Below, in pieces: positions 19,603 to 60,881 of a stretch of DNA of 64,000 nucleotides. Numbering within the stretch: the stretch's first letter is position 1; every line of letters starts with the position of its first letter. The DNA is taken from positions 162,466-226,465 of the forward strand of contig PS015082.1 in assembly GCA_048213135.1 (NCBI GenBank), written 5' to 3'. Source of the stretch: Reclinomonas americana ATCC 50394 (Eukaryota). The position numbers and the translations under genes are program-made. Below the pieces are notes generated by a model that ran no database searches, was not told the DNA's origin, and was given only the letters and a program-made list of their open reading frames with translations.

Positions 19603-21240
19603 TCATGCTTCGGTGTACAACTCTGCGTCGGACTCGCAGCACCGATTGCACTTGCCCGGTGGCAGCGGGAAGAATATGCTCGTGTCCCTGGAGTGCGTGT
19701 GAGGGTGAGATACGCAAACGGAGCGCAAACAGCAAGCTCCCTCCCTCCCTCCCTCCACCCACCGCTTGTAAATGTTGTATTCGGCGATGCTCCCGTACTT
19801 TTCTCGATTGCGTTTCTCCAGCACTGCGAGACAAAGCCACTGATAAGAACGCGTCGAATAACGGTAAATAGTGGCACGTGTGCTTCTTGATGAACCTGGG
19901 ATACCCGACACAAAGAGCAGCAGGCCGGTGATCCACATGGGACCGGTGATGCTTATCCACCACACACTATGCAGCGACGATGCTGCCTAGGAGATTAATA
20001 CCCAAGCAACACATAGATAGTTGAAACAAACATACTGACGTACCACAGACAAGAAAGATACCGATCCACACCTAAGGCGAGCGGGGGAAAAGGAGTGTGA
20101 GATGCGGTCGAGGCGGACAAGACATCACAACTCCTCGTTACACACCAACACCTCTCCAAAATAGTTGGGATGCCGACTGCACAACGCAAATGCACCGTTG
20201 AGGCAACGAGGTTACGCTGATCGAAGATGGGTGCAGCGACGAGAGACGACGCACCTGTACCGCCACAAGCCGGTGACGGGACCAAACTTGCTCGGATTCT
20301 CCAGCTTCCACTGGTACTTTTGGTAGCTGTCACAGCAGCGTGCGCGACGACGTCAGTGACAATCGCCCACAATTTGCGTGAGACGATGGCGCCGCAAACG
20401 CAACTCGGCGATCGACTCAATCACCAGGCCAAACACAAAGATCACAGTACCGACGTAATCCGACCAGATGAGATGGTACGGCGTGGCTCCGTCGTCCGAC
20501 TCGACGTACACGAACGGGATGGCCACCACAAACACAGTCACCATCTGGAAGAGCCAGAAGAAGCCGAACTTGATGGGATCGTCGCCTGCAAAGTCACAGG
20601 GTCAGACACCAATTGCACTCGGAAGAACAAGGCCAGCTCGGCAAGCGCAACGGACGCGGTCGAAGCGATCGTCTTTGCCAATCTTCGCGATGCGGATGTC
20701 TGTTGAGAGGATAGAGAGAGAGACCAGCAATGCAGTGTGTGAGAGATAGAGACAAAGGAACTGCAGAGCGATCATTGCGGCACGAAACACAGATAGGTGC
20801 CGAGTCGGAGTCCCCATGTCTGCGCAATGCACATCGTGAGATCAAGAGAGGTACAAGAGAGAGGGAGAAGGCAACGCACAGTGACCAAGATGGTCAGCAG
20901 CACTTGTCGCGCCTGCACAAGTGAGAGATGAGCACATGCATGCACGCATCATCTCCATCTCTCTCCGCATTCACGCACAGTGTATGTGTTGTTGATGAAG
21001 AGCGTGAGCAGGCTGAGAATGACAAAGTTGAGACTGTAGCTCATGTCAGTGAGCTGCGTACCACCAACACACACACGCGCGTGCAGAGTGAGTGAGATGA
21101 TGATGTGAGAGACGATGGAAGAGAGCATCGATCCCAACCTTGTCGGTCTTCAGTGTGCAAGCAAACAAGTAGAACCCCAGCTGCAAGCCACCGGTGATGC
21201 CGGCGGAGATGCCCAGCATCGTGCCCGCAGAGTGGCCCAT
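19603..21240 (-). CDS. DUF1295 / steroid 5-alpha-reductase-like membrane protein
   Basis: KDDRFD, ESIAD.QK, GLWRYSRHPNYFGE and SGIP.LEK motifs after splicing. Confidence 0.85.
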
Positions 21241-21376
21241 CTTGTCTCTCTTTCAACGAGCTTACTTGTATACGGATCAATGAACGGATGATGATGCGAC
21301 GATACATGTTCATTGATGTGTGGAGTTGTTGCACTTCTCCCCTCCCCCCTCTCTCCCTCTCCCTCTCCCTCTCTGC

Positions 21377-22971
21377 TTAAATGAGGAACTGCTTGGAGCT
21401 GAGATGCGAAAGGCCTTGCGATCCTTCGGCTGCATCGCCAACGATGACGAAGTTGATGTCGGCCGGATCGCGCGGTGCCGCCAGTGGCACATGCACGCTG
21501 CTTGACCTTGCGCCCCTCCCGCTGGAGCCCGGGGCGAGTGGTACTGGTGACGGTGCTGGTGACACGTGCACGTCGTGCGGGGCTGGATGCAGCGCCGGCG
21601 ACGACTCGACGGCTAGTGATTCGGCGGACGAGGATGGCACCGGTGGCACTCCGTGGACGCTGGCACCCGAGTCCAGAACGCTCGCCACAGGCGCCGCTGC
21701 CGAATCGACAGCCACAGCAGCTACGGCACTGCCAGTGGCCGCTGCCACCGATCCAGTTGCCTCTTCCGTGGCCTCAGTGGCCACACCAGCAGCAGCAGCG
21801 CCAGCAGCAGCACCGACAGTGTCCTCGTCGCCGTGTTGCGCATCGAGCTGCAGCAGGAATGCCGACGTGTCGGCGGCCTCCTCCGGTGTACACCGCGTGG
21901 ACGCGAAAAACATGGGATGCTCGACATCGGCAAACGACTCCAGCTGCTCAATGATCGGCTGCCCACGCAGGTCACGCAAGCCGCCGTCGGCAGAGCGCAC
22001 CTCCTCCAACAGATGCGTCACCAGTCGCTGCACGTAGCGGTAAAAGCCCAGTGCCGTGAGCGATGCCAGTATGCGACGGATACGCGCATGTTGTTGCACT
22101 GTGCAGCAGCAGCGAGCGACAGACAGGCGCGGCGTGTGTCAGCGCACGAGGGTGCGTGCGTGGAAAGAAGAGCAAAAGGTACGCGCGCAACAATTGGTCA
22201 ACAATGCCGCATAGTACCGCTTCTTGTAATCGCGACTCCGCCGCACCTCGCCCGTTCGCTCGTCCACCAACTGCATCCCAAAGAAGCCCAGCATCATGCG
22301 ATACGATCTGCGCGTGCATGCACGCGTTCAGCAAGCAAGCAAGCAATGACAACAACTGAAAGAAAGTAGCGCAAAACTTTACGAGATTGCCCGCGACCTC
22401 CAGATCCGCGCGCATGGCCCGCGCCTCCCTCACTGTGAGCGCATGCGCATGCGCGTTGGTGCGCGGCTCGTGATAGTTGGGGAACAACCATTGCAAGTAC
22501 GAGTGATTGCACTGTCAAAGAGAGAGAGAGAGAGAGTCAGGCAAATGCAACACGCGCCGCGCGCGCGTTGACTGAAATGAATGCGCATGCATGCATACAT
22601 CGAGCTGCTCATAGTCGCTGGCCCACTTGTGCATATCCGACACAGTGCCGCCCTCATACGCAGGCTCCGAGGTTCGTGAGTCGCGGTAAAACTAACACAC
22701 AAACGCACACACACACACACACAAACGCACAAAGAGAAATGCTGAGTGTGAGCGACACACACGCACTCTCTTGTTGCTCTCTTTGTGTGTGAGTGCGTAC
22801 TTGGTAGTTGGGCATTGTGTCGCGAATGTCGCCTGCGGCAGAGATAGAGTCGGCCTTTCGATGACCGCGACGCAGTCGTCGTCGACCTCCGTCGGCTGTG
22901 GGCACTGAGGGCGCATTAGCGTCCTCCTCGTCACTGTCGTCGCCGTTGCCGCGACCGCACTTGGCGCCCAT
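21377..22971 (-). CDS. Opioid growth factor receptor (OGFr_N) domain protein
   Basis: HSYLQWLFP..E, SYRMML.FFG and RIRRIL.SL..LG motifs; N-terminus MGAKC. Confidence 0.75.
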
Positions 22972-23308
22972 TTAGTGTGTGTGTGTGTGTGTGGTGAACA
23001 AATGACCACCCAATTCATTCACGGAATTGGCGGGTGCCGGTGGTGTGTGTTGGTGAGTGGTGGTGGAAGCGCACTGGTGTGCATGTACTCTTCACCTTTA
23101 CGTCTATATGCAAGGAAACGAATGCCCTCCACGCAAGCTGTTGGCAATGACTGCAGAGATGGATAATCATCTTCCCTTCCTTGTCCAGCAATCGCCTGGC
23201 GATCCGGGATAACCCGCAGTACAAAGCTGCTTCTACGTGCTGTGATGTAGCTACAACACAGCTTCATTTACCACGACCACCTTGATGCTGTTCACGTGCC
23301 GTCGTCTC

Positions 23309-26300
23309 TCATGTGGCCACAAAGAACGCGTGATCTGTGCGACGTGTGGGAAGTGAGTGGCCTCATCCGTCGCAGGTGTGCTTTTAACTACTTACCCAGC
23401 AGCTCCTCGACGGTGGGCCGTTCACTTGTCTCCCTGTGTGATGAGAAATGCATGCATGAATGAGCTCATGCAATGCGTGTTCGTCTCCGGTTTGTGGGAA
23501 GTGCGTAAACGCAACACAGTGAGGCAGGCGTCGATCAGGTCGCGCAGGTCGCCGGTGATGGCGTCGGGTATCTCGGGGCGTTGACCGCTCACCAGCGCGC
23601 CGATGATTTGCCACTGCGGGTGGATGGTGAGAACGATATCGACTGTGCAGAGAAGTTTCTCATTCGTACACACCTTGGTGGCATTGCCAAACGGTCGCAC
23701 ACCGGTGGACAGTTGCAGCGCCACGCAGCCAAAAGACCACACATCCGCCTGCACACGTGCCCACGTGTCACTCGACAGCGCCGAGGCAAAGTGTCCATGA
23801 GAAAAGGGCGTGACGGACGAACCTTGAAACCGTACCGCACCAACGCTTCCTCACTCGAATCGCCCTTTGACATCGAGGGACGACACACCTCGGGAGCGCA
23901 GTAGGCGGGCGCTGTGCACATGCGTCGTCAGTGGAGTGAGAGAGAGGGAGACAAAGGGGCGGAGGGGAGATGGGAAGCGCACGCAACTGCCCTTGTTCTC
24001 CGTCGCTGTTTGTGTTTCGGCGTCGAGAATCTTGCTGCAACCAAAGTCGGCCAGTCTGCGACAAAAGCCCGGCGGGTGAGCAGTCACCACAAACACAAAC
24101 ATACACGTATTGCCCTGTGCGCAACTTGATTACCGCTCCATGACTTCCACTGCACAAGAACACTTGGTAAATATCAACTTCAATATCAAGATCAAAGGCG
24201 TCGCCACTCACCTCGACAACAACAGGTTCTGCAGCGAGCGACAGAGAGTGTGAGTGTACGCACAAGAGAGCGAGAGCAGTGACAGAAACACGACGAAGGA
24301 ACCTGAGGTTTCAAGTCTCTGCAATGGCACCACGCATTAGTAAAACCCTCGCCTTTTACGAGGACAGGAGCAGCGGGCTCACCGATGCGCGACAAAGTTC
24401 GAATGCAGGAACGACAAGCCGCGCAAGATCTGCTGCAAATACCTGCCGTCGACACCGAAATGATTATCAGACCGCGCCCCGCCAGGCTCTCCTCATCGAA
24501 GGACACCACGCAACTCGTGCAGCACTTCAGTGCCGAGCGGGCCAAACGACGCGAGCTGGTCGGTGAGGGAGCCACCGCTGCAGTATTCCATGACTGCGCG
24601 AGGAGAATTGTGAGTTGACGCAACACCTGCACGCTCCACAGATGGCATAGACACGCACCAATGTGCACTGAGCGGTTCTTGTAGGCCGCGTGCAAGAGGT
24701 GCACCAGATTGCGATGTCTCAAGTTCCGAAGCAGTGAGATCTCGCTGACAATGTCGGCCACCTGGCGCGCCGACGACTCGTTCAGCATGATGCGGATCTT
24801 CTTCACCGCCACCTGCGTGCCTCGCTGCGGGCCGCTGGTGATCATGCCGAGATACACCTCGCCGAATGAACCACGACCCAGCTCGCGATCTGCTCACAGC
24901 ACACAGAATGAGCGCCGACAACATGGACTGTGCCCTGTCCTCCACAAGGCGCACGAACCGCTGACAGTGTAATCGAATGGCACCGAGTCCTCCACCGCAT
25001 TCGCAATGACCTCGGCCACTTGCCGCTCGAACTCGGCTTGCAGAGTTGCAGAGTCCACCGGAGACGCCACTGCGCGATCGATTTGCAGCGTCGACTGCAC
25101 AGCATCGTCGGAGCTGCTCGACAGCCCGGACACGGTGGCTGTCAAACGGCGGGTGAGTGACACTGCCGAGTGAAAGATGAATCGGCGCACACGCAACAGC
25201 TGCCCGACGATCCACTCGACACAGGCATCTCCAGCGCGAATCCGGGGAACGCCAGCAAGCCTGCCCGAGTGGAACAATTTAGAGACATGGACAGGACTCA
25301 ATGTCGCGGCATCTTCGTCTCACGCAACGATCAGCAGGGAAACTACTCTGCAAGACATTGCGCATGGAGCGCAGCGCCGGCGACGGCACACCGAGTTCCT
25401 TGGCCGCCGTCCAATTGTCCAACAGGTTCTCCACGGTGAACACAAACTGCGAGTCGACGTCAAGACCCTTGCGACACAACACACAGGAGCGAAAAAAAGA
25501 AAACACACGCAACATTGTCGGCCAGCTTGGTGGACAGTGCCTGCACCTGGGCCGGCGGCCACTTGTTGGCCTGAGCGACCAGCTCCAGCAAATCACCGAC
25601 AGTCGACATCATGGTCAGCGTTGTCGTCGTCGTCTGCGGTGGCCTCAGCAACTTGGAGGGAGCGGCCTGCTGCTGCGACGGCCCCTGCAACTTCGGAGAC
25701 AGCGGCATGCGCTTAGTGGGCTTCTTGATCCCGACCGAGTCTTGACTCCCGTCACTGACATCATCATCGTTGGCGACAAAATCGTCGTTGGCAAAGTCAT
25801 CGTTGGGCGTCGGGCTCGGAATGCTCCGTCGCTCATCGTCGTCGCCCTCCGAGTCACTGAAATTGTTCTCCGAGTCGGAACTCGCCCGGTTCTTGCTCAT
25901 CACCTTCTGCAGCTTCTTCTGCACTTTCTTCAGCGGCTTCTTCTTCGGCATCTTCTTCTTGTTCTGCGCCACCGCAGGCTCTTCCGTCTCCTCCGCCATC
26001 GGCGACTCGGTATACGACGCCATACGCGCACGCGTCGCTCGCGTCGGCGCCTTTCCCATCTCCGACATCAGCTCATCGGCCTGCTGCGACACCTTGCCAA
26101 TCTGCGCCCTGTTTTGCCATACAGAGTAAGCCGCAAACGAAACCACACGCACACAAGGAGCAGAAGCGCGACGGAACCGTGTCTGCGACACCTCCAGCGG
26201 AGTGGCGGCCGCAGCGAATCCTCCGGCCACCGACGACTGCACGCAGCAAACAACTCAGCACGTAGCGCCAGTGTACGTTGAGGATAACGCAAGGATAGTC

Positions 26301-26843
26301 GCACCATAACGTTAGAGGACTTGCCGGCGGGTTTCATGGACGGCGCCGGTGCAGAGGCGGCCTTGGTCTTGGTCACGGGCGAGAGATCCAGCGACCGAGG
26401 CGGAGAAGGCGCCGGCTGACGCTTCGACGCCACTGGCGGAGCTGGAGGCGGAGCGTATGCTCCAGGCGGAGAGTACGCTCGAGGCGGAGAGTACACTCGA
26501 GGTGGTGCCTGCTAAACACGCTCAGTTGCCACACAACGCAGCGACAAGAGATGGACAAGAGCGAACCGCCATCTGCGAATACTGTTCACATGAAGAGCCA
26601 CAATGAGCCGCGCTCTCTTACAGACACACGCGCGCGCGCGTGACAGCGACTCACCGCCAGTGAGTTCGACGTGTTGAACAGCGCATGATCGGCCTCTTGC
26701 TCACTCCATCCCGAGGGCGGAAGCCGAACTGGCGGCGCTGCTGACTTGCTCTCTGCGGCGGCAAAGGTTGACGAGGACAGCCGAGAGGAAGGCGCTGCCG
26801 ACTTTTTCGATGGAGCTGAGGAACGTGATTTGCTCTTCTCCAT
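23309..26843 (-). CDS. Ser/Thr protein kinase, STE11/MAP3K-like, with a SAM-like region and a long low-complexity N-terminus
   Basis: LGRGSFGEVY, VAVKK, HRDLKPQN, KLADFG, GTPAYCAPE, DVWSFGC and RPT..ELLDHAF after splicing. Confidence 0.88.
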
Positions 26844-26941
26844 GATGAAAGTACTAGTGGACTACCAAGAAGATGAAAATACACATCACGCGTTCTCTGC
26901 AACTGTGCGCATCGAGACGCACTGTTGTGGTGGGCTCTCTC

Positions 26942-34426
<7,485 letters not shown>

Positions 34427-34477
34427 TATCTTGTTTGATATGTTGGCAAAAATGAATGTTCCTGTTTCGCTTCTCGT

Positions 34478-38216
<3,739 letters not shown>

Positions 38217-41573: not shown

Positions 41574-43450
41574 CTACAAGTCGTCGCCAAGGTCTATTTC
41601 CTCTGGATTCTTCTCCACGGCGGCCGACGCAGCGTGGGCGGCGCACTCTTCGTCGCCGTCAACGTCGTCAATGTCGATCTCTTCTGGGTTGCTTGCCGCT
41701 GTGTGTGTGGGGGGTCAGTCAGCAGTGAAAACAACTGCACCGTGCACCCAACAGCACACGAACCAGCAGTGGCGGCGGCAGCAACCTGCGCATAGTACTG
41801 CATGCTGGAGCTGCCGGCGCCGGCCGAGGCCTCGGCCGCCGTGCCAGCCACGTTCGGCAGGTGTACCAAGTTCTCAATGTCGATCAGTGCGACAAACTCG
41901 TCCGTCTGTGGATTGGAGAATGCATCCGGGCCCAGCATCTCCGGCTGCGAGTACCTGCCCGGTACGTACACTTGCTTGGTACGCGTAAAGTTCTCCGGCA
42001 CAGCCAGAGTGCCTCCACGCCGCTCGTGAACGCGCTGTCGCACCGCCTCCACCTCCTCGTCGCTCACCGGCCAGTCGGCACTGCAGCATCGCGAGGGTGA
42101 GTGGGTGGGTGGGTGAGGTGACGAGAGGCAAGGAGAGCACAAAAGCACGCACGGGGTGCCGTCGGGAGCGCGTGGAATGTAGAGGCGACGCCGACGCGTG
42201 TCGACCAGCGGGTTGCACTTGCGCAACACCGCCAGCCACTCTTCGTCGTAGCTGAATTCGGGCATGTCGGGCGTCCAGGTGGACGACGGTCGCACCTCAA
42301 TCACCTGCAGGAACTCGCGCATGGGCAGGCACTTGTCGAGGGCCAGGAACTTGGTCTCGGCTCCACTCGGGTGTCGCACCAACGCCGAGAACTTGCAGTG
42401 ATGATGTGCGGAGAACCAGTACCGAGGCTGCAGACGATGCAGCAGGTACTCGGAGGCCGGACTGCCAAACTGGTCGCGCTCAATCTGTTCGCTCAACCGC
42501 ACTGGGTCAATCGCACCGCCTTTTTTTTCTTGCTGGAGAGCACATGTACGACGAAACATCTTCCCGAAAGAACGGCTTCTTCTGCAACAGCCAGCTCTTG
42601 TTGCCGTACTCCCAGATGTTGCGTGGCCAGTCGTGCGAGAGGAACACATCCACCGGCCTTTTCACCTGTGCCATCTTGAAGATCTCGAGCTCCCGCGTGT
42701 GATACATGGTGATCACGTCCTTGGGCGAGAACGGCGGAAACTCGTGCAGACCTGTGTGCAGTGCGCACCGGTCATCGACGAGAAGGAGAGAAAGACAGAC
42801 ACAAGCTGCGCACCACTCTCAAACGTCCTCGAGTCGTAGATGCCCGAGAGACCGGCGATCCGCAACCCCCGAAAGTTGACCACGCCCGACGCCCCAATGT
42901 AGTAGATACGCGGTGCCGCCCAGCCTCCATAGTACCTGCCATGGCAAAAGCTCACCAGTCACCAATCTTTTGCTCGACCGCAGCGCACACATGAGCGACT
43001 CAACAGTTCCTTTTGGTGATTCGAGGCCTCGTGGTTGCCGCCAATGTACAGTGTGAGACACGGCGCCTCCAGCTCACCCGAGTAGTACTTGTAAAAGGTC
43101 TTCATGTCGCGGTACTTGGGCTTCAGATTGCAGCATAGCAAGTCGGTCTCGTTGCGAACGGCCTGCGTGCATGCATGTGAGAGAGAGACCGAGAGAGGAA
43201 GGAGACAAGATAGAGGAGGAGGCGCACTTGAAAGTCGCCACAGCAGATGAGCAGGTCGACATGCACACCGCGATGGTCGCGCATGTAGCGAATGGACTCG
43301 TAGATCTCATCAAGGTCGCCGTGTGCGCAGCCCTCAATGGCAATCTGTGTGGCAAGTGTGCGTGAGAGAAGGAGCAGTGAAGAGAGAGAAAGGCGGGAAG
43401 TGGCAGCACGCAACTCGCACAGTGCGCGGCTCACTCTCACTCTCACTCAT
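41574..43450 (-). CDS. DBR1: Lariat debranching enzyme
   Basis: [65 protein letters not shown]-terminal NPEEID repeats. Confidence 0.95.
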
Positions 43451-43507
43451 TGGATCACTCATTGTTCACAAAACGCAAAGTTGTCCTTGAGGACGACGAC
43501 AAACATA

Positions 43508-45053
43508 ATGCGCGTTGCAGTGTGCGCCCTCGCACTCCTCCTGCTGTGCACTGTGGCACTGTGTGCTGTTGCGTGCCCTTACTCTTACTCACTCACGCCT
43601 TCTCTCGCAGCTCACACTTTGCACACAGTCAGCATCCTCCTCTGATCACACCTCCAACTGGGCGGTTCTCGTCGGCACCTCTCGCTACTTTTTCAACTAC
43701 CGACACGGTGCCGATGCACTTGCATTGTACGCGTCTCTGCGACGCGCGGGCTTCCCAGACTCGCGCATCATTCTCATGTTGGCCGACGACTTTGCTTGCT
43801 CCACGCGCAATCCACACCCTGGAGTCATTCTGTCGGGCGCCGCACAGTACGCCACCTCTGCGTCGCTGAAACTCGCGGAGGGAGTCAGTCGGTGTGGGAA
43901 GGCACGCAGATCGCCGCTGTCGCAGGAGGAGAACACGGGTGAGGCGGATCTGCTAAGTGGTGGCTTGTACCCGGCGGATCTGGAGGTCGACTATCGCGGG
44001 TATGAGGTGTCGGTGGAGAACTTTCTGCGCTTGTTGACGGGTCGGTGGCCGGCGGAGACACCACTGTCGAAGCGACTGGGCAGTGACAGTCAGTCGAATG
44101 TGTTGGTGTACTTGGCGGGGCACGGTGGCGATCAGTTCCTCAAGTTTCAGGATGCGGAGGAGATCGACAGTCAGGAACTGGCCGATGCGTTGCAGCAGAT
44201 GCATCAGCGGCAGCGGTATGGGCGGCTGCTGCTGATTGTGGACACGTGCCAGGCCATGTCGCTGTTTGACAAGATCGACGCGCCGAATGTGGTGGCCGTC
44301 GGCAGCAGTTTGCTCGGGCAGAGTTCACTGGCCGTTGCGTGTTGTGAACGATGAGATAAGAGGGGAGAGGAGCAACAGGGACTCATTCGTCGCGTGTTTG
44401 CAGTCGTGGGTGAGCGAAGAGCTCGGCACACCGATGCTCGATCAGTACACCAACAAGCTGGCGGCCTTCTTCGACATGTATATGGAGAAGCAGGATGTCA
44501 CGCTGCAGGATATGGTGCGTGCTGGCAAAGTCGGTGAGCGGGTGGGTGAATGGTTTGGTATGCTCAAGGAATTCTTGTGTTTCTCGTCGCCTGGCAGGTG
44601 GATGTGACGAAGCGTGAGACGCTTACCTCCACGGTGGACGTGCGACACACGTTGCCGGTGGGAACCACCCTCTCCGATGTTGCGTTGAGACTGTGGAGAC
44701 AGCCGCGGGCCATCGTCACAGCGACTCACACTCTCGCACACGTGCAGCTCATGTTTGCCGACTTTTTCGCTCACCGCGTCCACGCCAACACCACCGACAC
44801 GGAACGCACGACGCTGTTGCCATCGACCCCGCCTCCACCAATGCCAGACGCGCCGGAAACAGAGTCGCCATCGCCGAGGACGACGACGACAACTACAACA
44901 ACTGCGTCGGAAACGACGACAACGGCAGAGACACGGGAGAGCCAGCAGCACCTGATGACGGTGATTGCCGTGGCGGCCTCAGCATTGGCGCTGCTCTTGT
45001 CGGTAATACCCACCGGCAAGCCAAAGTTCAGCAGGGAAAGGAGAGACGAGTAA
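43508..45053 (+). CDS. GPI8: GPI-anchor transamidase catalytic subunit (peptidase C13)
   Basis: Signal peptide, NWAVLV.TSRYFFNYRH, EVDYRGYEVSVENFLRLLTGR, GHGGDQFLKFQDAEE, DTCQA, C-terminal TM helix. Confidence 0.95.
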
Positions 45054-45111
45054 AAATCGAAGACAATTAGCGCGAGCTTGCCGCAAACCACTGCGAGGGT
45101 TTGTCATCGAA

Positions 45112-45986
45112 ATGCACGCACAGCTTGCGGTGAAGCGAGTGGCGCTTGAACTGGAGCAGCTGGCCACTGAGCCCCCACCAGGTGTCTCTGCGTACCCGAG
45201 CAGCGAGGAGAGTCTGTACAGACTGACAGCACGTTGTGTGATGATCATGCGAGTGGTCGTGCCTATCTCTCTCTCTTCTTACCTCTCTCTCACGCAGAGA
45301 TCGATGGACCGCAGGAGTCTCCCTACGAGGGCGGCGTGTTTCGCCTGGACGTGAGCATTCCTGATCGGTCTGTGCATGTGAGTGTGTGCATTGGTTATCA
45401 TCTCTCTCACTGTCGCACACACAGATATCCACTCGAGCCACCCAGTGTGCGCTTTGTGACCCCCATCTATCATCCCAACATTGACTCGGAGGGACGTATC
45501 TGCCTCGATCTGCTCAAGATGCCACCATCGGTTTGTCAATCGTCTCACTTCTCCTGCTTTTCGTGTCCTTCTTGCCTGAGTGTGTACGTGTGACAGGGTG
45601 CGTGGCGACCATCGATCAACCTGTCGACGCTACTGTCGTCGGTGCGGCTGCTCATGGCGGAGCCGAACCCCGACGATGGTCTCATGGGTGACATCACCGA
45701 CGAGTACAGGAACAACCGTGCGCTGTTTCTGCGCAAAGCACGCGATCGCACACGGCTGCACGCCAATGGTGGTGGCGATGATGGTGCCGGGGGTGCGCAG
45801 GCGGCAGCCGACGAGTCGCGCAAGAGACCACTGTCGGCCATCAGCAGCAGCGCGACTGTTTCGGCCACCGCCGTCACAGCAGCAGTGTCAACTGTGCCAA
45901 CGCCGTCGCCGCCGACAGCAGTTGTCGAAGAAGAGGAAGACGAAGACGAGGACGAGGACGCGCCACTCAAGAAGCGACGCAAGTGA
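45112..45986 (+). CDS. UBE2T: Ubiquitin-conjugating enzyme E2 T-like
   Basis: [53 protein letters not shown]; acidic/basic tail ending PLKKRRK (NLS-like). Confidence 0.85.
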
Positions 45987-46010
45987 AACAGGGAAGCAGA
46001 CGTGATACAC

Positions 46011-47193
46011 TCATGACGGCTCCAGCAAGTGAGCAGCCAGTCGCACTCGTCGGTCGCGCGTCACATCGACCACCGCCAGCCGCTTGAGCAGGAAGAGATG
46101 ATCGTCGTGAACGGGAAAGCTGCCGTCCAGCGCGATACCGTCGCCCTTGGCCTCCAACAGTTTGTCACACAGCTCGACCAGTCCCTGTGAAGACAAGTCA
46201 AGAGTCTGTGCTGCCAGTCCTTCTGTCTCACGCTGGACGCAACGGGCATGCCATCTGCTTGCACCTCCTCTGTCGCATCCACATGAGCCGCAATCTCCTT
46301 CAGCTGCTCACGCAACACCGTGCGCCGTGCAAGAATCGCCTGTCGCATCTGTTGCACCTCGTCGCCACGCGTCGTCGTCATCGCCGACGGATTCGCCACA
46401 CCCATGTCGGCCAGTTTGCGCTGCAGCTGCTGGCGGATCTGCTCGTGCTCCTCGCTGTACTGCTGCTCTCTGCACGCGCGCGCACACACACGCCGCAATC
46501 GGCATCAGACGCAGACGAGGCGCAACGAGCGCACAACCAACGCAACAGTTCGCAGTCTCGCTGAGTGGCCTCTCGTCGTGCTCTCGACGCCACCAGTGTG
46601 CTCTGCAGCTCTTCCACCGCACGTCGCATCATCAGCATCGTCTCTGCATCGTCGCCGCTTGTCGTGCGTGAGCTCTCTGCGCCCACACTGCGTCAACAAA
46701 CACTGCACACACACTGCGTCAACACATCACTAGCAGTCACACACCTGCCGCCAGTGGATCGAGGCACTCCAGACGTGCAATCTCACTGCGAATCGTGGCA
46801 ATCGCTTGACCAGTGCGCGATGAAGGCTGGCGAGCAGGAGCGCTCCTCGACTGCACAGACAACACCGCGGTGTCACACACACAACGAGAATGCACACGCG
46901 CGCGATTAAAAAACACGCGCGAACCAGTGATGACAACTGATCAATCTGCGTCTGCAGCTGCGCACACGACTCTCGCACACGTCTCGTCTCCGCGGCAATC
47001 GCTGCACCCTCCTCGGCATCCACCTGCGCAATGCACTGTGAGTGATCAAGTGAGTGCGCAGTGGTTTTTTCCGATCGCCAACCTCGTGGTGTCTCAGTTG
47101 CTGCAGAAGCGCAGTGTGCTTGGTGGAGCACACGCGCGACACACGCGCTGCGAGTGCTCGAGCGGCGAGAACACGCGCAGTGGGGTCGCCCAT
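46011..47193 (-). CDS. Hypothetical coiled-coil protein
   Basis: Spliced exons with heptad-rich E/Q/R sequence; boundaries approximate. Confidence 0.5.
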
Positions 47194-47254
47194 GCATGCA
47201 GTACAGAGAAAGGCTTTCGTCGATCGATCACGTGTCACTGTTCATCGCCTAGCC

Positions 47255-49291
47255 ATGGAGCACTCCAGCGGCGTACACCACGTGCGCCACTCACTCTCTC
47301 TCTCCCTCACGCGCGCTGATGTTGACAGCCGCGTTCACTGACTATTGCTCGTGTCACACACGCAGTGGCAGTGTGCGGCGGAGCGATTGGCGGCGGCCAG
47401 TGCCTCTGCGATGCCTCTGTGGCCGGGCATGACGGAGGAGAGCAGTGGTGGGCGACGATCACGCGCTGCATCGCTCACCGATGTGGTCATTGTCAGTGGA
47501 GAGGTTGCTCTCTCTCTCTCTCTGTCTGTCGTGCCCTGGATCGATCGCTCACTGTGGGGTGTGGGTGGTGAACAGGAGGGTACACGACTGCCGGCACATG
47601 CGGTGATTCTGGCCTCGCGCAACGCGTACTTTGAGGAGATGTTGTGTGGCAGTGGTTTGTTTGTTATTTTCGGCTGCCGCCCGCCCACCTGCATCGTCAA
47701 GGTCGCCCACTGTTGCGTGCAACAGACTGGGCTGAACGAGGCGCTGGTGAGGTCAATCGACGCAGTGTGCCGACGCCGGTCATGGTGCAAGTTCTACGCT
47801 TTCTGTACAGTGGTGCAGTGACGTTTGACAGTGAGACCCTGGTGCCACTGCTGGCGGCCTGCGATGAGATGCGCGTGGAGGAGCTGTTGGCGCACTTGCA
47901 CGAGTTTCTGACGCATAGTCTGACTGCCGACTCGGCCATCGCTATCATGGTTGCGTCCGTCGAAGCGCCTGGGTTCGCATAGCTGATCGTTGCTCACTGC
48001 GTGCAGGAATCCGCCGACACGATGGGCCCGCGCTTCGACGAGCTGCACAAGCGATGCGCCGAGGTCGTATGCAAGAACGCCAAAGCGGCGCTGACGAGCA
48101 GGGCGTTTCAACGCTGTCGCGCCGACACACTCGGTGTCATTCTGCAACGCGACGACCTGATGGCCTCCGAAGAGGAAGTGTGGGACAGCTTGGTGGCATG
48201 GGCCTGCGCACAGTGTCATGTGGCGTCGCACAAGGTCACCGAGTGGAACGACGAAGAGAAGCAGCGGTTACGTGAGATCCTGGAGGAGCCCGTGAAGCAC
48301 CTGCGCCTGCCGTACATGCCAAAGTCGAGGTGAAACAGACCCACTCTGGGAATTCGTCTCTCCTGACTGTGTGTCCTCACTTACGACAACAATGAGGCAG
48401 GGTGCGCGAAGTGTCCGTGAGCACACTGATCCCGGTGGAGCGTGTGCTGCAGTGGACAATATACCTGCTGGAACCGGAAGGAGCGGAGGCAGGGTCCATC
48501 CCTCGGCCTCGTGACGCGCATGTGGCCGCTCGAGTATCGTGCGTGTGGAGTCTGGATGCGACCGACAAGCACTCCTACTACGTGCCCAGTGCAGATGGGC
48601 GCACTGTTGTGTTCAATGCACCGTCGTCACAGTGGCGCGGCTTCATCTTGTCTCATCCCATTCAGTATCCGCGCGGAGGAGTGATTGAGATTACGTGCGT
48701 ACCATGAACGCAGCACGCACCTACACGATGTACACTGATTATTCGTGCGCAGGTGCAAGTTCTCGTTCACCAACACCAGCGGTCGATGCGCGTTTGTTGG
48801 CTTTGCTGCCGGTCATCCAGGAACAGCGGCTCTGATTAGAGACGATGTCTACGCTCACCCGAGCTTCAACCTTGTCAACTACAACAGCAGTCTGCAGTCG
48901 ACCACGAGTTTTCGCCATTTTCCGGTGCGCCGCCACTGCGTGCCTCCCCTTGGGTCACCCCGCAATGGAGTCATGGTCACTGACGCCGTCTGAACAGGGT
49001 GGTACTCCGCTTGACCTCGAGCCGGCTGAGCTGCTGACATTTGTGGTGGACGCGCTCGAGCCGTCGCTGAGCGTGCGTACAACAGGGAATGCAGTGGTTG
49101 GTGACCTCTCAAGCGCTCACTTTGCAGTTGCCGTCGTCCCACTCACCTTCCACTATTAATTACGGCAGAGATTTGACAGCATGTACCCCGCGTGGCGTTT
49201 TCCAGACGAACTCCGCCTTTGCTTCGTGGGATTCAATCCGGCCTCGACATGTACGATAGAATCGGTGCGGGTGCTTTCAATCGGGAGATGA
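47255..49291 (+). CDS. BTB/POZ-BACK domain protein
   Basis: DVVIV, LPAHAVILASRNAYFEEML, VLRFLYSG, L.RDDL..SEEEVWD.LV.W, HLRLPYM. Confidence 0.85.
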
Positions 49292-49345
49292 CAGAAAACA
49301 GTAAAAGATAAAGCACTGTTGATAAGCAAGGCCACCAGCCCGACG

Positions 49346-51596
49346 TCACGGCGCCGCTGCTCCTCGTCGTTGATCAGGCAGTTGTTGATACCCTCCCTGA
49401 TACTGGTCTGGTGCGCCGGCACCATTCGGGGCACCGTGAGCTGCCCCAGGAATCAACCTGACACGGTCATTCCGATTGTCGTTGACGTACGGGTTTTCCT
49501 CGTCGGGTATCTGAGGTGGACGCAGGCCTCGAATCCAGGTTGCGCGGTTGTCCCGTTGTCGGCGGTCGCAGCAACAGCACCGCCACATCCATCGAAGGCA
49601 ACGGAAGCACGCACGGCAGCAGTTGCGAAGGTGCCGGCCGATCACGTAGAACACGGAGAAGATGGCCATGAACGCAGAGGTTCCCAATAGGGCCACCGAA
49701 ACGATGAAGATGAACTGGTCGTGACTGTCGTAGAGCTTGACGAGCCAGATCAGGCCGGCGTTGGTGAACAGCAGCACAAGCATGCAGGCGTTGCACTTGT
49801 TCTCGACCTTGGCCTTGAAGTTATCCATCTGCTTCTGTGTGGTATTTTCGAACATTGATGACTCTGTGGTGGCGCGGCTTCCTGCATCATCGCAACAGCC
49901 GTCAGTAAGCCGCTGCGAAGCATTGCTGGAGATGAAACTCACCCCATGACAGATCGTGCAAACGCGCCACACCGTACGTCGTGAACCCCGGAACGAAGGT
50001 GGCCACAAACGAGTAATATGGCACCAGTGCCACAAGCATGCGCAAGAACGAGCTTGGCGAGTTCAACAGCGCAACAACGTAAGGAGCAGCTGCAAACCCA
50101 ACGGCAATGTAGAACAGCAGTCGGTCGTCGCTGCCAATGTTGTTGATGACGAAAGCCGTGATCGTGAACGCAGTTGTCAGCGTGTTGAAGATGAACAGTA
50201 AGCCAAACGTTCCCATATCCACCGCCGGCGACTTCATGAAGCGGTTGACGACAGCAAATACCAGCCACACTGCCACGTAGAGCCAGTAGAATAACTGCCG
50301 GAAGATGTCGTACATGATGTTGGTGTTGGCAGGGAACATGACGGGGAGACTGTAGGCCAGGGCGATGAGGACCATGGCCGGCGAGTGGTACGTGATGAAG
50401 CTGGTGATGAGCTGGCACAGTAGGAGGAAGTACGTGAAGGCCTTCTTGTACCACACCAACTTCGATTCGACAATCATGCTGGGCGACATGACCGTCAGGT
50501 ACATGAGGCAGCAGATGGCACCGTTGTTCCAGCGACGGCGCTGGTAGATGAACGACTCGATGCTGGTCTCGGCCTGGAAGTAGAAGACGGCGTCGGGTAC
50601 CCAGGCAGTAAACGCCTGCGCTGATGCGTGCTTCAGCACCAGAGCAAAGCTGAGGATGCGATCTGCGCAGTCAGGGGTGGTGGTGAGCCGCGTGGTCTTC
50701 TTCGCATAGAGAAAAACAGCAAAGTGTGCGAACCTTCGGCATTGCGGATGTTGGCCTGCATCAGACTCGTCTTGTGGATCTCCTCCTCAATCGTCTCAAA
50801 GTAAAATGGAAGGACGTCGTCTTGCACACTGCGATCCGAGTAGCGAATCATGCAAGCGGGTCCTGGTAAGACTGGTAGAAGTGAGCCAGTGGCAAACGCT
50901 GCCATCTGCAAGTTGCACGAGCTTTCCACATCGGCAACCTGCACCATGCGCAGGAACCAGCCGGCGGCACCATCGGTGGACCTCTCCGCCTTGGCGGTCA
51001 TCACACGTGGTCGGCCAGTGGCTCCCACGCAGTTGGGGTTGCGTACCATGTACTCGACAAGACTGACCAGACAGCGGTCGGAGAAGCCAGTACCACAGTC
51101 ACTGGAGAAGGCGAGATGTGGCTGGTACTCTCGGCAAGCTCCGTCGTAGAACCAGCGGTGCGAGTTGTGCTTGCGCCTGTTGCCTTGCTTGACCACCAGT
51201 GTCACGTATCGACCGAGCAGCATGCCGTGCGGCACGGGGGCCGACACGTAAGCGTCAGGTGCGTTGACTCCTGGAATATGCCGTACATACTCGATGACAC
51301 AGGTGCGCCGTGCCATCTCGGACCCTTCTTTGGCATCCGACATGAACTCTCGCCAGTCGTAAATACCGTGGAACAAGGAGCCAAGCACACGTTTCATGGA
51401 GGTCGACATGGCGCCCCAGCCGTCTTGCACAATGCAAAAGCGCTGTTCGACCTCGTCTGGCAAGCCGCGCTGATTGAGCACGAGCTGTTGCAGGGTGCGG
51501 ATCATCTCGTAGCCTTCCTCGTTGTAGGCACAAATGAGCGACAATAAGCGCAACGCCGCTGTCGCCCACTGCATGGGTGCAAAGTATTGCACACGC

Positions 51597-51684
<88 letters not shown>

Positions 51685-52103
51685 GGTGTTGTTGTTGGTG
51701 GTGTTGTTGTTGTTGTTGTTGTGGATTCTGGTTCCCGTTGCCACCCGCAGCAGGCGCACCGTTAGGCAGCTGGCGAAAGTTCACGACTTCGTCCACGCCC
51801 TCTTCGTTCTGTCGTCGGCGCGCCGGAACGTGCGGCTTGTAGGCGTCGTTGTAGCGTGTAATTGAGAGAAACACGCCGGCTTGGTCTGCCACCGGAATGA
51901 GCACGCGCGAACCGCCAGGTACATCATGCGGGAGCCCCGATGCGATCGGCCATCGGTCTGGAAGAGGGGCGTCCGCACCTGTTGCGTGAAACGTGACGAG
52001 AGTATGACAATGAGAACGACATGACGACGAATGTATTCAGCCGAAGCTTACCAGCAGGGGCGCCAGCAGCTGCTGCAGCCGCAGGTGGAGCTGCTGCAGC
52101 CAT
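49346..52103 (-). CDS. Chitin synthase (GT2), copy 1, with polyQ insert
   Basis: YNE, QDGW, NRRKHNSHRWF, DCGT, LPVLPGP, AE|DRILS, QRRRW and multiple TM helices. Confidence 0.9.
51598..51721. repeat. (CAA)n coding repeat giving polyglutamine in chitin synthase 1
   Basis: (GTT)n on the + strand, in frame on the - strand. Confidence 0.95.
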
Positions 52104-52299
52104 CCACTCTCCACAAAGGCAACGAAAGAGACAAACACGACAGACAACAACAACAACAACAACAACAACAAGCCGCTAGCCTTGTTTGTTACACAACGCG
52201 GCACATGTTAGAGAGCCGGGAGTCGATCATGTCAGCCGTGATCACAGTGTAACCCACACACACCGGCGGTGGCGGTGTGTTCGTTTCCCGGCAACAAGA

Positions 52300-52455
52300 C
52301 GACAGTGAGGACCTCACAGCGATGCATGCACATTACTGACACAATCATGCACCGATGAGGCGACCATCGCGATCGCCGCGATGCACCTCACACACCATCA
52401 TACGTCGTCATGGCTGCAGTGCGGTGGCACAGCGATCCCACGCATCGTCAACTCC
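52300..52455. promoter_or_regulatory. Conserved upstream element, copy 1 (upstream of chitin synthase 1)
   Basis: Core ATGAGGCGACCATCGC..GCCG.G.TGCAC..ACAC..CATGGCT.C.GTGCG..GGCAC is shared with ~55600-55746 and ~58770-58905. Confidence 0.5.
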
Positions 52456-52620
52456 GCGCGTACTTGATTCTTTTTTGTGTTTCCCGCCCGCGAGCGCGCG
52501 CTATCGTCATCAATCATGATAGCAAGAGAAACGCCCGAAGTATGCAGCGCAGTGGATCTAAAGACTGTATTAAATGATACGAAACACTGCTGAGATTAAA
52601 GCAAGGCCACCAGCCCTACG

Positions 52621-54953
52621 TCACGGCGCCGCTGCTCCTCGTCGTTGATCAGGCAGTTGTTGATACCCTCCCTGATACTGGTCTGGTGCGCCGGCACCAT
52701 TCGGGGCACCGTGAGCTGCCCCAGGAATCAACCTGACACGGTCATTCCGATTGTCGTTGACGTACGGGTTGTCCTCGTCGGGCATCTGAGGTGGACGCCA
52801 GCCTTGCGGGGGAATCCAGCTGACGCGGTTGTCCCGTTGTTTGCGGTCGCAGCAACAGCAGCGCCACATCCTACGAAGGCAACGGAAGCACGCACGGCAG
52901 CAGTTGTAAATGTGCCGGCCGATCACGTAGAACACGGAGAAGATGGCCATGAACGCAGAGGTTCCCAATAGGGCCACCGAAACGATGAAGATGAACTGGT
53001 CGTGACTGTCGTAGAGCTTGACGAGCCAGATCAGGCCGGCGTTGGTGAACAGCAGCACAAGCATGCAGGCGTTGCACTTGTTCTCGACCTTGGCCTTGAA
53101 GTCATCCATCTGCTTCTGTGTGGTATTTTCGAACATTGACGACTCTGTGGTGGCGCGGCTTCCTGCATCATCGCAACAGCCGTTAGTAAGCCGCTGCGAA
53201 GCAAGGCGCCACCAACTATGAGATGAAACTCACCCCATGACAAATCGTGCAAACGCGCCACACCGTACGTCGTGAACCCCGGAACGAAGGTGGCCACAAA
53301 CGAGTAATATGGCACCAGCGCAACCAGCATGCGCAGGAACGAGCTTGGCGAGTTCAACAGCGCGACAGCATACGGAGCAGCTGCAAACCCAACGGCAATG
53401 TAGAACAGCAGTCTGTCGTCGCTGCCAATGTTGTTGATGACGAAAGCCGTGATCGTGAATGCAGTTGTCAGCGTGTTGAAGATGAACAGTAAGCCGAACG
53501 TTCCCATATCCACCGCCGGCGACTTCATGAAGCGGTTGACGACAGCAAACACCAGCCACACAGCCACGTAGAGCCAGTAGAATAGCTGCCGGAAGATGTC
53601 GTACATGACGTTGGCTGTCTCGTCGGTGGGGAACATGACGGGGAGACTGTAGGCGAGGGCGATGAGGACCATGGCCGGCGAGTGGTACGTGATGAAGCTG
53701 GTGATGAGTTGGCACAGCAGGAGGAAGTACGTGAAGGCCTTCTTGTACCACACCAACTTCGATTCGACAATCATGCTGGGCGACATGACCGTCAGGTACA
53801 TGAGGCAGCAGATGGCACCGTTGTTCCAGCGGCGGCGCTGGTAGATGAACGACTCGATGCTGGTCTCGGCCTGAAAATAGAAGACGGCGTCGGGCACCCA
53901 GGCAGTGTACGCCTGCTCCGATGCGTGCTTCAGCACCAGGGCAAAGCTGAGGATGCGATCTGTGCAGTCAGGGGTGGTGGTGAGCCGCGTGGTCTTCTTC
54001 ACATAGAGAAAAACAGCAAAGTGTGCGAACCTTCGGCATTGCGGATGTTAGCCTGCATCAAACTCGTCTTGTGGATCTCCTCCTCAATCGTCTCAAAGTA
54101 GAACGGAAGGACGTCCTCTTGCACGCTGCGATCCGAGTAGCGAATCATGCAAGCGGGCCCGGGAAGGACGGGCAATAGTGAGCCAGTGGCAAACGCTGCC
54201 ATCTGCAAGTTGCACGAGCTCTCCACATCGGCAACCTGCACCATGCGCAGGAACCAGCCGGCAGCACCGTCAGTGGACTTCTCCGCCTTGGCTGTCATCA
54301 CACGTGGTCGGCCAGTGGCTCCCACACAGTTGGGGTTGCGTACCATGTACTCAACAAGACTGGCCAGACAGCGGTCGGAGAAGCCAGTACCGCAGTCACT
54401 GGAGAAGGCGAGATGTGGCTGGTACTCTCGGCAAGCTCCGTCGTAGAACCAGCGGTGCGAGTTGTGCTTGCGTCTGTTGCCTTGCTTGACCACCAGTGTC
54501 ACGTATCGACCATGCAGCATGCCGTGCGGCACGGGAGTTGACACATACGTGTCAGCCGCGTTGACTCCAGGTATGCGCTGCACATACTCGATGACACACG
54601 TGCGCCGTGCCATTGCGGATCCTTCCGGGGCGTGGTCCGACATGAACGGCCGCCAGTCGTGAACGCCGTGAAACAAGGAGCCAAGCACACGTTTCATGGA
54701 GGTCGACATGGCGCCCCAGCCGTCTTGCACAATGCAGACGCGCTGTTCGACCTCGTCTGGCAAGCCGCGCTGATTGAGCACGAGTTGTTGCAGGGTGCGG
54801 ATCATCTCGTAGCCATCCTCGTTGTAGGCACAAATGAGCGACAATACTCGCAACGCCGCTGTGGCCCACTGCACAGGCGCAAAGTACTGCACACGCTGTC
54901 GCGGCGCCGGCGCCGCGGGTGCCTGCACCTGCTGTCGCTGCTGCTGCTGCTGC

Positions 54954-54993
<40 letters not shown>

Positions 54994-55229
54994 GATTCTG
55001 GTTCCCCGCAGCGGGCCCACCCATCGGCATGGGGTTGAAGTCCACGATCTCTTCGACTTCGAGTTCATTCTGCTGCCGACGCGCCTGTACGTCTGGCTTG
55101 TAGGCGTCGTCGTAGCGTGTAATCGAGAGAAACACGTCGCGTTGGCCTGCCACCGGAATGAGCACGCGCGAACCGCCAGTCACCGGCTGTGTAAGTGGCG
55201 AGTTGAATGGCCATGGGTCTGGTGGAGGG

Positions 55230-55273
<44 letters not shown>

Positions 55274-55387
55274 ACCAGCTGCTGCATGAAAACGAGAATG
55301 CAATGAGTGTGACTGTGACACGACGACGAGAGAGCTCCAAGACGTACCAGCAGCTGCTGCAGCCGCAGGAGGAACTGCTGCAGCCAT
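52621..55387 (-). CDS. Chitin synthase (GT2), copy 2, with polyN and polyQ tracts
   Basis: Same motifs and intron positions as copy 1; highly similar nucleotide sequence. Confidence 0.9.
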
Positions 55388-55599
55388 CCACTCTCCACAA
55401 AAGCAACCAAAAAGACACGACATGACAGACAACAACAACAGGCCGCTAGCCTTTCGTTGCACAAACACGGCCGACGACATGGGCGGATTGATCACTCGTC
55501 ATCCTGTCAGCCGTGATCACACTGCAACCCACACACAACGGCGGTGGCGGTGTGTTCAATTGCTAGCGGTGTTTTCCGGCAACAAGACGACACCGAGGA

Positions 55600-55746
55600 T
55601 CACACCAGCGACGCATGCGCATTGCTAATACAATCATGCATCGATGAGGCGACCATCGCGATCGCCGAGGTGCACGCCACACACTGTCGTGCATCATCAC
55701 ATGGCTACAGTGCGGTGGCACAGCGATCCCACACATCGTCAACTCC
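55600..55746. promoter_or_regulatory. Conserved upstream element, copy 2 (upstream of chitin synthase 2)
   Basis: Aligns by eye with 52300-52455. Confidence 0.5.
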
Positions 55747-55945
55747 ACAGTGTGTTATTGTTGACGAGTCACTTCGGGACTTGCAGATGACTTGGGACGT
55801 CGATGGCAGGTGCAATGACCGATGGGCCGCGGAAAGTCGTCACAACCATGTATGTTACTGTCGGGAACCCTGCCAAGCAAAGTCTGATCTCAAGCCACCT
55901 TGTATCAATAGTCATCATTCATTCTCCCAGCATTCTTCTGCCATC

Positions 55946-58560
<2,615 letters not shown>

Positions 58561-58769
58561 GGTGGTGGTGGTGGTCGCGTGTGATGTGAATTCGAAGGCG
58601 GAGAAATGAAATTCGACTTGTTGTTGGCAACTTCGTTCGCTAAAGAACGGGGTCAAAATGCGGCCAACTTGCACGGACATTGGAGTCGAGTCGAGTCGGG
58701 TCGGCTGAGGCGACAAAAAAACACTTGGCGTGTGCGTGGATGAATGGGCTGATGCATGTGCAGAAATAA

Positions 58770-58905
58770 CACGCAGCGCGCCCTGCGCATGCAAATTGCC
58801 GACACATTCATGATGGATCAATGAGGCGACCATCGCAACTGCCGAGGTGCACCTTAAACACTGTCATACATCATCGTGTGCATGGCTGCTGTGCGTTGGC
58901 ACCGA
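58770..58905. promoter_or_regulatory. Conserved upstream element, copy 3 (between the DUF4139-Ub gene and SMYD gene 1)
   Basis: AATGAGGCGACCATCGCAACTGCCGAGGTGCACCTTAAACACTGTCATACATCATCGTGTGCATGGCTGCTGTGCGTTGGCAC matches the chitin-synthase upstream element. Confidence 0.5.
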
Positions 58906-58985
58906 CAACGTCGCGCGTATAATTTTTGATATGTTGTTTTTCCCGCCACAAACGCGAGTGCGCTGCGCCTCACCAGCTCGTAAAG

Positions 58986-60881
58986 ATGGACTTGGAAGCA
59001 GGCGATGCCGACGATCTCCATCGCGGCCTGCCCAACATGCGTGTGTTGCTTGGCAAGTACGGTCGGTGAGTTGCTCACACAGCGACCAACGCGTGTCCGC
59101 CGTCGCTCCTCGCTCACTCTCTCGCTTGCTCTCTCCAACAGCTTCTGCGTGGCCACTCGAGAGTTTCGTCATCGCCACTCTCTCCTTTTCGTTGGTTCAC
59201 TGCGATCTCATCATTCATCATTCATCGACACAGTATTGATGCTGGCGAGGTGATTATGGAGGAGCCGGCGTATGGAATGATGGTGGTGCATGGAGAGAGG
59301 CGACGAGTGTGCGATCATTGTCATGGTCGCTACATGCGGTGAGAGAGAGGCAGAGTGAGAGAGCAAGTGTGTGTGTAATCGCTCACTCGCACGCGCGTGC
59401 GCGCTCAGTCGAAAGGCACCGGGTCAGCCGCCTGAGTTTGCCAACTTGCCGTACGCCTGTGTGGGTGGCTGTGGTGTGGTGTTCTTCTGCTCGGTACAGT
59501 GTCGCCGTTCAGGTTCGTTCAGAGGCTCGTCGTTTGGTTGCTGCGTGTCGGTGTGTGACAAGTGTGTGTGCAGCGTCGGCCGATCATGCGCGCAGTGGCG
59601 AGTGTGGCATCTTTCGCGCGTTTCACATGTTGGAGACCGACATTCGTCGCACTGGCTACGATGGCGACATTACGTCGGCGTACTTGTCGCTGCGGATGCA
59701 GGCGCGACGCAATCTGGAGTTTATGAGTGCGATGGCGTCGTCGGTGGAGGACCGACAGACACATGGTCCAGAGGAGCCGCTGAGTGACGACCAGACAGCA
59801 CTGCTGCGGCGACACATATGGCGTCTGGAGCAGCAGCTGGCCGACCAGGGCACATTGATCAAGTCGCTTCGTGCGGAGGTGGCCAACAGAAATGCCACGA
59901 TTGAGGACCTGGAGAAGCGGATCGAGGGTGTGGTGGGCGCACTGTTGCGTGGCTTGTCACCACCGATTGCCCAACGTGCGGTGGAGGGCGCAGGATTGGT
60001 GGTGGCGGTCGGCGACGCAGGCAAGGCTGCGACGCCGAAGCGATCAACATCGGTTCCTGTTTCACCGTCGTCGTCGTCGTCGTCGGCACCACCGCCGGCG
60101 GCATTTTCGCCGCCCGGCTCGGTCGCAGTCTTGTCGCCATCGATGGAACGCTACGAACTGCAAACACGACGCTCGTCAAGTGCCGCAGTGCAGCCACCGA
60201 CGCCGCAACAACACACACAACAGCAACGACACAATGTCACACCGCCGCCTGCCGAGTACTCGCACTTTACGGCGTTGGCGACCAATTTCGGGCGCATCTC
60301 CAGCGGCGACATGGAGACGTACAGCATGCTGGCGGGTTTCATGCGCCGTGCGTTGGAGGAGGCCGAATCGCGGGTGGTGGCCTCGGAGAAGGAGCTGGTG
60401 GAGGGCTTTTGTCGGATTCAGTGCAACGGCTTCGATCCGGAGGAGGAGTTGTCGGAGGAACTCATGCGCGCCAAGCACGCACAAGACGCTCGCGACGCCG
60501 ACGGCGACACCGATGGGGACTCCAACAGCAACGATCCCTACGCCAGTGCCGTGTATCCGTACATTAGTCTGATGAACCACAGCTGCGATCCAAACGCAGT
60601 GGTGGAGATCGACGCCACGCATGTCGCCCGCTCGCGAGTGATGCGTCTCAGCACGTTGCGACCGATTGCACGCGGCGAGGAGATCAACATTTCCTACGTC
60701 GACACCGACTGGTCGCTGTCGAAGAGACGGGAACACCTGCTCACGTATCACCTGTTTGAGTGCCAAGTTGCGTGCTGCGGCGAGGTGGTGAAGTTGTCGT
60801 TGAGTTCCTCACCGGTACTGTTTGCGCTTGTCGCAGTGTCCACGGTGTCTGCGAGAGAGCGCACTTGCGAGCAGAATGTAA
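58986..60881 (+). CDS. SET and MYND (SMYD-like) lysine methyltransferase, copy 1
   Basis: GR|FCVATRD|IDAGEVI, CDHC...CVGGCG...CS..C, SLMNHSCDPN, GEEINISYVD, FECQ|CPRC. Confidence 0.88.

Follow-up and report, generated by a model that had tools for sequence, protein, structure and literature searches.

Roca and Krainer reportedly described in 2009 a shifted (+1) register of U1 small nuclear RNA (snRNA) at atypical human 5′ splice sites, and Roca is said to have described bulge registers of 5′ splice site/U1 helices in 2012. Here we analyse a 64-kb stretch of the genome of Reclinomonas americana ATCC 50394 (contig PS015082.1, hereafter the window), with 58.6% G+C, seven N gaps and tightly packed eukaryotic genes containing many short introns, in which a large class of predicted introns starts with GTTKCGY (K, G or T; Y, C or T), the GTKCGY block of ordinary donors displaced by one nucleotide from the GT.

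In the shifted human register every base pair between the 5′ splice site and U1 is moved by one position (PMC4856993; review PMC9311317). The window donors resemble these sites in having the consensus one base further from the GU, the +1G in the slot facing U1 that -1G usually takes, and the cut at the GU. They differ in that the human register belongs to atypical sites, whereas the class in the window represents about 28% of predicted introns and has a block of its own, T-K-C-G-Y, for which we infer the pairing with U1. A second human arrangement is a bulge at +2/+3, predicted at 68 sites, 54 after curation (Tan 2016, PMC4856993). Bulge and asymmetric-loop registers are like the window in that a displaced consensus can pair with U1 thanks to an extra U past the GU (PMC4856993); however, a bulge predicts that -1G is kept, and the shifted donors of the window are almost devoid of it.

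Among protists, Thecamonas and Mamiellales use donors with C at +4 and a standard U1, Entamoeba uses GUUUGU with a U1 ending in ACAAAC, and Mastigamoeba uses GUGCGC with ACGUAC (bioRxiv 10.1101/2022.06.08.495308). Introns of Mastigamoeba are reported to have a mean length of 137 nt. The window is similar to Thecamonas, Mamiellales and Mastigamoeba in that its commonest ordinary donor, GTKCGY, carries C at +4, in a GC-rich, protist-type genome, and its shifted donors share T at +3 with those of Entamoeba. The text of that preprint on the donors of these four groups, figure logos aside, makes no mention of a further class of donors with a one-base displacement. Likewise, by title or abstract, we found no description in the literature of a GTTGCGT/GUUGCGU donor class, although supplementary splice-site tables may hold one.

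Two donor classes sharing one block

Codon usage alone did not find the genes of the window, and introns were instead predicted with a dynamic-programming parser of our own, built on a self-trained model of branch site, acceptor and intron length; order-3 k-mer enrichment was uninformative. The parser predicted 119 introns, recovering all ten hand-curated introns of a protein kinase gene, as well as those of a SET gene and of a DUF1295 gene (see below). Their donors were GTTKCGY in 34 cases, GTKCGY in 31 and other sequences, mostly GTGAGT and GTGTGT, in 54. The last exon base was G in 24 of the 31 GTKCGY donors and 46 of the 54 others but in just two of the 34 GTTKCGY donors, four of which are copies from a tandem gene array (2/34 vs 70/85 for all other donors; Fisher p = 2.9e-15). 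Because the first donor model had seen exon bases, training was repeated with other donor models. With a model restricted to intron bases (122 introns), -1G was found in 2/34 GTTKCGY, 24/32 GTKCGY and 44/56 other donors (p = 1.7e-13), and with no donor model at all (140 introns) in 2/28, 18/24 and 43/88, respectively (p = 3e-6). A preliminary description of this DNA had treated GTT-type donors as exceptional; instead, GTTKCGY accounts for about 28% (34/122) of the predicted introns.

The block T-K-C-G-Y lies at +3 to +7 in the 34 shifted donors, as compared with +2 to +6 in 31–32 ordinary GTKCGY donors. When both classes are aligned on it, K is G or T in nearly the same ratio (24:7 ordinary, 25:8 shifted), and the base preceding the invariant G is A/C/G/T in 32/32/6/29% of ordinary and 39/15/6/39% of shifted donors. 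The exon -1 composition of shifted donors resembles the -2 composition of ordinary ones, and the shifted register fits the exon flank better by 72.9 bits. The equal K ratio, the correspondence of -1 with -2 and the loss of -1G agree with the earlier proposal that the cut and the consensus block are uncoupled by one nucleotide.

A simpler reading is that no special signal exists and that GTT-type donors arise by chance, from base composition or as artefacts of the gene models. Most introns are indeed unverified predictions, and GTTKCGY is merely 1.45-fold more frequent than expected, with 83 occurrences in the window against 57.1 ± 7.1 in 100 dinucleotide-preserving shuffles; for GTTGCGT the figures are 37 and 16.45 ± 3.9. 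However, the observed count was reached in none of the 100 shuffles for either motif. Additionally, GTTKCGY occurs 49 times in sense and 14 times in antisense orientation within predicted genes (GTTGCGT, 26 and 5), the -1G contrast survives the removal of any donor model, and the joins at four kinase and three DUF1295 donors restore conserved domains without indels. We thus regard this reading as very improbable. The fraction of motif sites that are predicted donors was 34/83 for GTTKCGY and 24/70 for GGTKCGY, vs 8/203 for GTKCGY lacking a preceding G.

Ordinary donors most often carry C at +4 (GTKCGY 31–32 vs GTGAGT 12). Also, a predicted donor at 43004 (minus strand), T|GTTGAGT, resembles a displaced G|GTGAGT, and the one-base shift may reach beyond the KCGY block.

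Two other types of intron were considered. An all-against-all blastn comparison of 122 intron interiors, aimed at introner-like mobile introns, gave 29 pairs, consisting of paralogue copies and simple repeats, with no pair linking unrelated GTTKCGY introns. U12-type introns are marked by RTATCCTT-type donors, and none of the predicted donors was of this type.

Position of the cut at GTTKCGY donors

The preliminary description named five GTT-type donors, at 20404, 23515 and 23987 on the minus strand and at 59163 and 60767 on the plus strand, all of them correctly placed. Four read GTTGCGT, as it had said (GA|GTTGCGT at 20404, GT|GTTGCGT at 23515, GGC A|GTTGCGT at 23987 and CAA|GTTGCGT at 60767), but that at 59163 is GA|GTTTCGT. 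All five introns, and all ten hand-curated kinase introns, start with GT and end with AG. A different possibility is that the cut follows the block, as exon-G|TTKCGY...CAGN, which would keep the distance between cut and block constant. Since mRNA length and frame are the same under this reading, frame alone cannot exclude it, and we simulated it by substituting G for the base with which the downstream exon starts. As claimed previously, GT-AG splicing produces G-T-P-A-Y-C-A-P-E, F-E-C-Q-C-P-R-C, A-T-R-D-I and I-A-D-Y-Q-K at the junctions of 23987, 60767, 59163 and 20404, and the alternative produces GRP, QGPRC, ATREI and AEYQK, respectively.

The kinase-domain part of the kinase gene occupies 23389–24887 (minus strand), and the gene continues upstream to about 26242. 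In a hand-built model, removal of ten GT-AG introns of 60–82 nt leaves an unbroken kinase domain, from GRGSFGEVY via HRDLKPQN and DFG to ERPTVEELL, and its exons match the Pfam family Pkinase. A branch-site-like motif (CTNAY-like) is present 14–36 nt upstream of the AG in the ten introns. Seven donors of this gene are of the GTT type. The intron at 23912–23987 (76 nt, GTTGCGT) splits the codon A|CG, which specifies the Thr of G-T-P-A-Y-C-A-P-E and would specify Arg under the alternative. For comparison, five bacterial genomes supplied 30 Pkinase loci, of which 28 domains were extracted; the corresponding column contained T 21, A 3, S 2, D 2 and R 0, and six further alignable kinases, from eight other loci, contained T 3, S 2 and I 1. 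With a hidden Markov model built from the 28 bacterial domains, the spliced product scored 181.2 bits under the GT-AG reading vs 177.8 bits under the alternative.

Joins were also made at three of the remaining GTT-type donors of this gene. Removal of the intron at 23434–23515 (82 nt, GTTGCGT) is required for the ERPTVEELL frame, as had been proposed, and read-through meets a stop codon. This junction is nevertheless uninformative between the two readings, as is the ambiguous one of the intron at 24443–24514 (72 nt, GTTGCGT, GA|G), because G follows the AG at both. At 24056–24125 (70 nt, GTTGCGC, AA|A) both readings specify the same residue. An ordinary comparator in the same gene, at 24594–24658, has G|GTGCGT. 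The catalytic loop region contains three successive micro-exons, at 24126–24149 (24 nt), 24212–24228 (17 nt) and 24303–24318 (16 nt), all required to read HRDLKPQNLLL...IKLADFG.

The SMYD-like gene (58983–60895, plus strand) encodes the N-terminal part of a SET domain, a MYND-type Cys/His finger, a long insert, the C-terminal part of the SET domain and a post-SET region, as deduced from matches to Pfam SET, matches to SMYD1/2/3 in PDB and our parse. Its intron at 60767–60836 (70 nt, GTTGCGT) joins CAA|TGT. The post-SET motif C-x-C-x-x-C, including its second Cys, is restored by the GT-AG join alone (C-P-R-C), and the alternative changes this Cys to Gly. In the alignment of a read-through reference with SMYD3 from PDB (E = 2.9e-9), FECQ|vacc faces FECDCFRC; all five alignments shown were to SMYD3. 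The intron at 59163–59233 (71 nt, GTTTCGT) splits the codon GA|T, for the Asp of A-T-R-D-I. The two readings differ here as claimed, Asp vs Glu, although as a test the motif is weaker than had been assumed, since its column is variable: among 14 bacterial SET domains, extracted from 30 loci, we found D 5, E 0 and other residues in 9.

All three GTT-type donors of the DUF1295 gene (minus strand) rebuild the conserved domain without indels, as do the four kinase donors described above. An exhaustive phmmer search with a 62-residue exon gave 19 matches, from which we dropped five long, repetitive multi-stretch proteins and aligned 14; PF06966 was confirmed for 10 of the 10 homologues checked. The intron at 20327–20404 (78 nt, with GTTGCGT at 20404–20398) splits the codon GA|C, for an Asp that would turn into Glu under the alternative, and the 12 homologues covering this column have D 11, S 1 and E 0. 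The intron at 20700–20788 (89 nt, GTTTCGT) splits T|AC, for a Tyr that would turn into Cys, and the nine covering homologues have F 6, L 2, Q 1 and C 0. The junction of the third, at 20586–20651 (66 nt, GTTGCGC, with C at -1), is uninformative, with G after the AG. Joining across it gives RFDRVRDDPIKF, with which the homologues are continuous, and joining across an ordinary comparator intron at 20177–20254 (AG|GTGCGT, with G at -1) gives WRYSRHPNYFGE, which matches the homologues. These two joins reproduce RFD..RDDP.KF and W..SRHPNYFGE without gaps.

Readings that change the length of the mRNA are excluded, since continuity with the homologues holds on either side of the introns. A cut that follows the block, in turn, would put R, G, E and C at positions occupied in homologues by T (21/28), Cys (SMYD3), D (11/12) and F, L or Q, respectively, and would need introns with TT...GN ends. 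To our knowledge, no spliceosome uses such ends, and we consider this reading the least credible of those examined. Judged from protein conservation, cleavage of GTTKCGY donors at the GT is supported at four informative junctions (23987, 60767, 20404 and, newly, 20788) and at the weak one at 59163; the earlier assignment of the cut is upheld to this extent, on comparative evidence alone. Taken alone, cleavage at the GT would surprise no spliceosome biologist; the interest lies in the existence of the displaced-block class, in its share of the predicted introns and in its behaving like the ordinary motif read with an offset of one base.

The gene for the lariat-debranching enzyme DBR1 (41577–43462, minus strand) contains two more displaced-block donors, GTTGCGT at 43414 and GTTTCGT at 42557. 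Here the choice between the readings is one between I and V, and the position of the cut is not decided by either donor.

Recognition of the displaced donors

The two donor classes match on T-K-C-G-Y, indicating that G-[G/T]-T-K-C-G-Y acts as one unit, cut 5′ of whichever GT is present. The explanation that we favour, with moderate confidence, is that these are ordinary U2-type GT-AG introns with a shared 7-nt 5′ signal, G-[G/T]-T-[G/T]-C-G-[T/C], cut in two registers and probably recognised by one U1 in a fixed register. With G as its second base, the signal is cut between the two Gs (G|GTKCGY), the usual form, with G as exon -1. With T there, the sole GT is found one base further upstream, and the cut shifts to it (|GTTKCGY), so that the first G, otherwise the last base of the exon, turns into the first base of the intron. 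The 5′ end of the same U1 snRNA would pair with the block in one register, the shifted +1G taking the usual partner of -1G. U6, U5 and Prp8 are the parts of the catalytic spliceosome that place the cut, and this later machinery would set it at the GU. Both the role of U1 as reader and its +1 shifted register are what we infer from the donors, and the arrangement suggests that recognition of the site and choice of the cut are separate steps.

Several observations weigh against this explanation. At -1, the shifted donors have T as often as A (14 each), although U10 of U1 is unable to pair with T. The standard U1 5′ end pairs weakly with shifted donors, with a mean of -1.4 kcal/mol vs -4.6 for GTKCGY, and nearest-neighbour modelling of the duplexes leaves the registers unseparated and mixed over the real sites. 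With an ACGUAC-type U1, the predicted partner of the shifted donors' +1G (n = 34) was C9 at 11 sites, C8 at 10, C4 at one and none at 12. For the consensus A|GUUGCGU the shifted duplex is the most stable (-2.5 kcal/mol with the standard U1 and -8.4 kcal/mol with an ACGUAC-type end), a result that is suggestive only. Besides, apart from about 20, the introns were predicted by a self-trained parser in a single 64-kb window, the strand calls of genes depend partly on the intron model, and the comparison sets for the kinase and SET domains are bacterial rather than eukaryotic.

One alternative keeps the usual pairing of +1G and +2U with U1, so that one U of +2/+3 bulges and GCGU then pairs as usual. 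Such one-nucleotide bulges at +2/+3 have been validated in human (PMC4856993), and the 10 of 34 shifted donors that prefer +1G:C8 with an ACGUAC-type U1 would fit it. However, a bulge at this position keeps -1 opposite C9 of U1, and -1G should then be retained or enriched; it was seen in 2/34 shifted donors vs 24/31 donors with the same block, and the -1 composition of the former mirrors the ordinary -2. We consider a bulged U unlikely.

Alternatively, a variant U1 or other factor complementary to GUUKCGY could read the shifted donors, making the two classes separate systems. The weak pairing of these donors with the standard U1 leaves room for a second or co-evolved U1, and the pairs ACAAAC/GUUUGU in Entamoeba and ACGUAC/GUGCGC in Mastigamoeba provide examples of co-evolved U1 5′ ends (bioRxiv 10.1101/2022.06.08.495308). 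Conversely, the shared K ratio and the shared upstream composition would not be expected from two independent readers, and an Rfam scan of the window yielded no snRNA, even with the limit relaxed from the gathering threshold to E <= 1. We rate this possibility marginally below that of a bulge. A broader form of the proposal, in which recognition and cut would be offset by one nucleotide in about a quarter of the introns, whether by the same U1 in the +1 shifted register or by a second, co-evolved U1, appears to us evenly balanced between true and false.

Gene content of the window and implications

Pfam comparisons of single exons identified the protein kinase, the SET protein, the DUF1295 protein, two chitin synthases, DBR1 and ubiquitin, with further matches to VIT/VWA, PGI, peptidase C13, BACK and DENN; among six short exons, one gave a relevant match. 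The identity of the chitin synthases was confirmed via ESM Atlas. Word-based protein searches with the SET, DUF1295 and kinase exons retrieved neither the proteins themselves nor close relatives, phmmer against PDB with short exons gave no matches, and tblastn against plasmids gave none either.

A tandem array of VIT and VWA genes (1032–13189, plus strand) includes at least three or four near-identical copies, interrupted by N gaps. They have intron positions in common, with introns 89–100% identical, and a GTTTCGT donor occurs at 1700, 5753, 9873 and 12960. The two tandem Chitin_synth_1 paralogues (49637–51529 and 52903–54955, minus strand) also have matching intron positions, and one pair of their introns is 98% identical. 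Amid intron-dense neighbours, a long open frame at 55949–58578 (minus strand), with matches to the ubiquitin family, is almost without introns. Just past the stop codon of the SMYD-like gene, low-complexity sequence at 60897–61000 (a run of C followed by TAC/GTA-type repeats) surrounds a 20-base N gap (60917–60936) and may be an assembly joint.

Shifted U1 pairing is known from rare, atypical human sites, and most likely it serves here what is apparently a major class of donors. Under the broader form of the proposal, recognition of the 5′ splice site and choice of the cleavage site would be naturally separated in this organism on the scale of a genome. A genome with a large, sharply defined GTTKCGY class using shifted pairing would offer natural test cases numbering from dozens to thousands, bearing on how the cut at the GU is fixed independently of the position of U1 and on the co-evolution of the donor consensus with U1. 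Gene finders that use a single donor matrix would score GTTKCGY poorly, because -1G and +5G are missing in the usual register, and would then mis-model genes of this organism.

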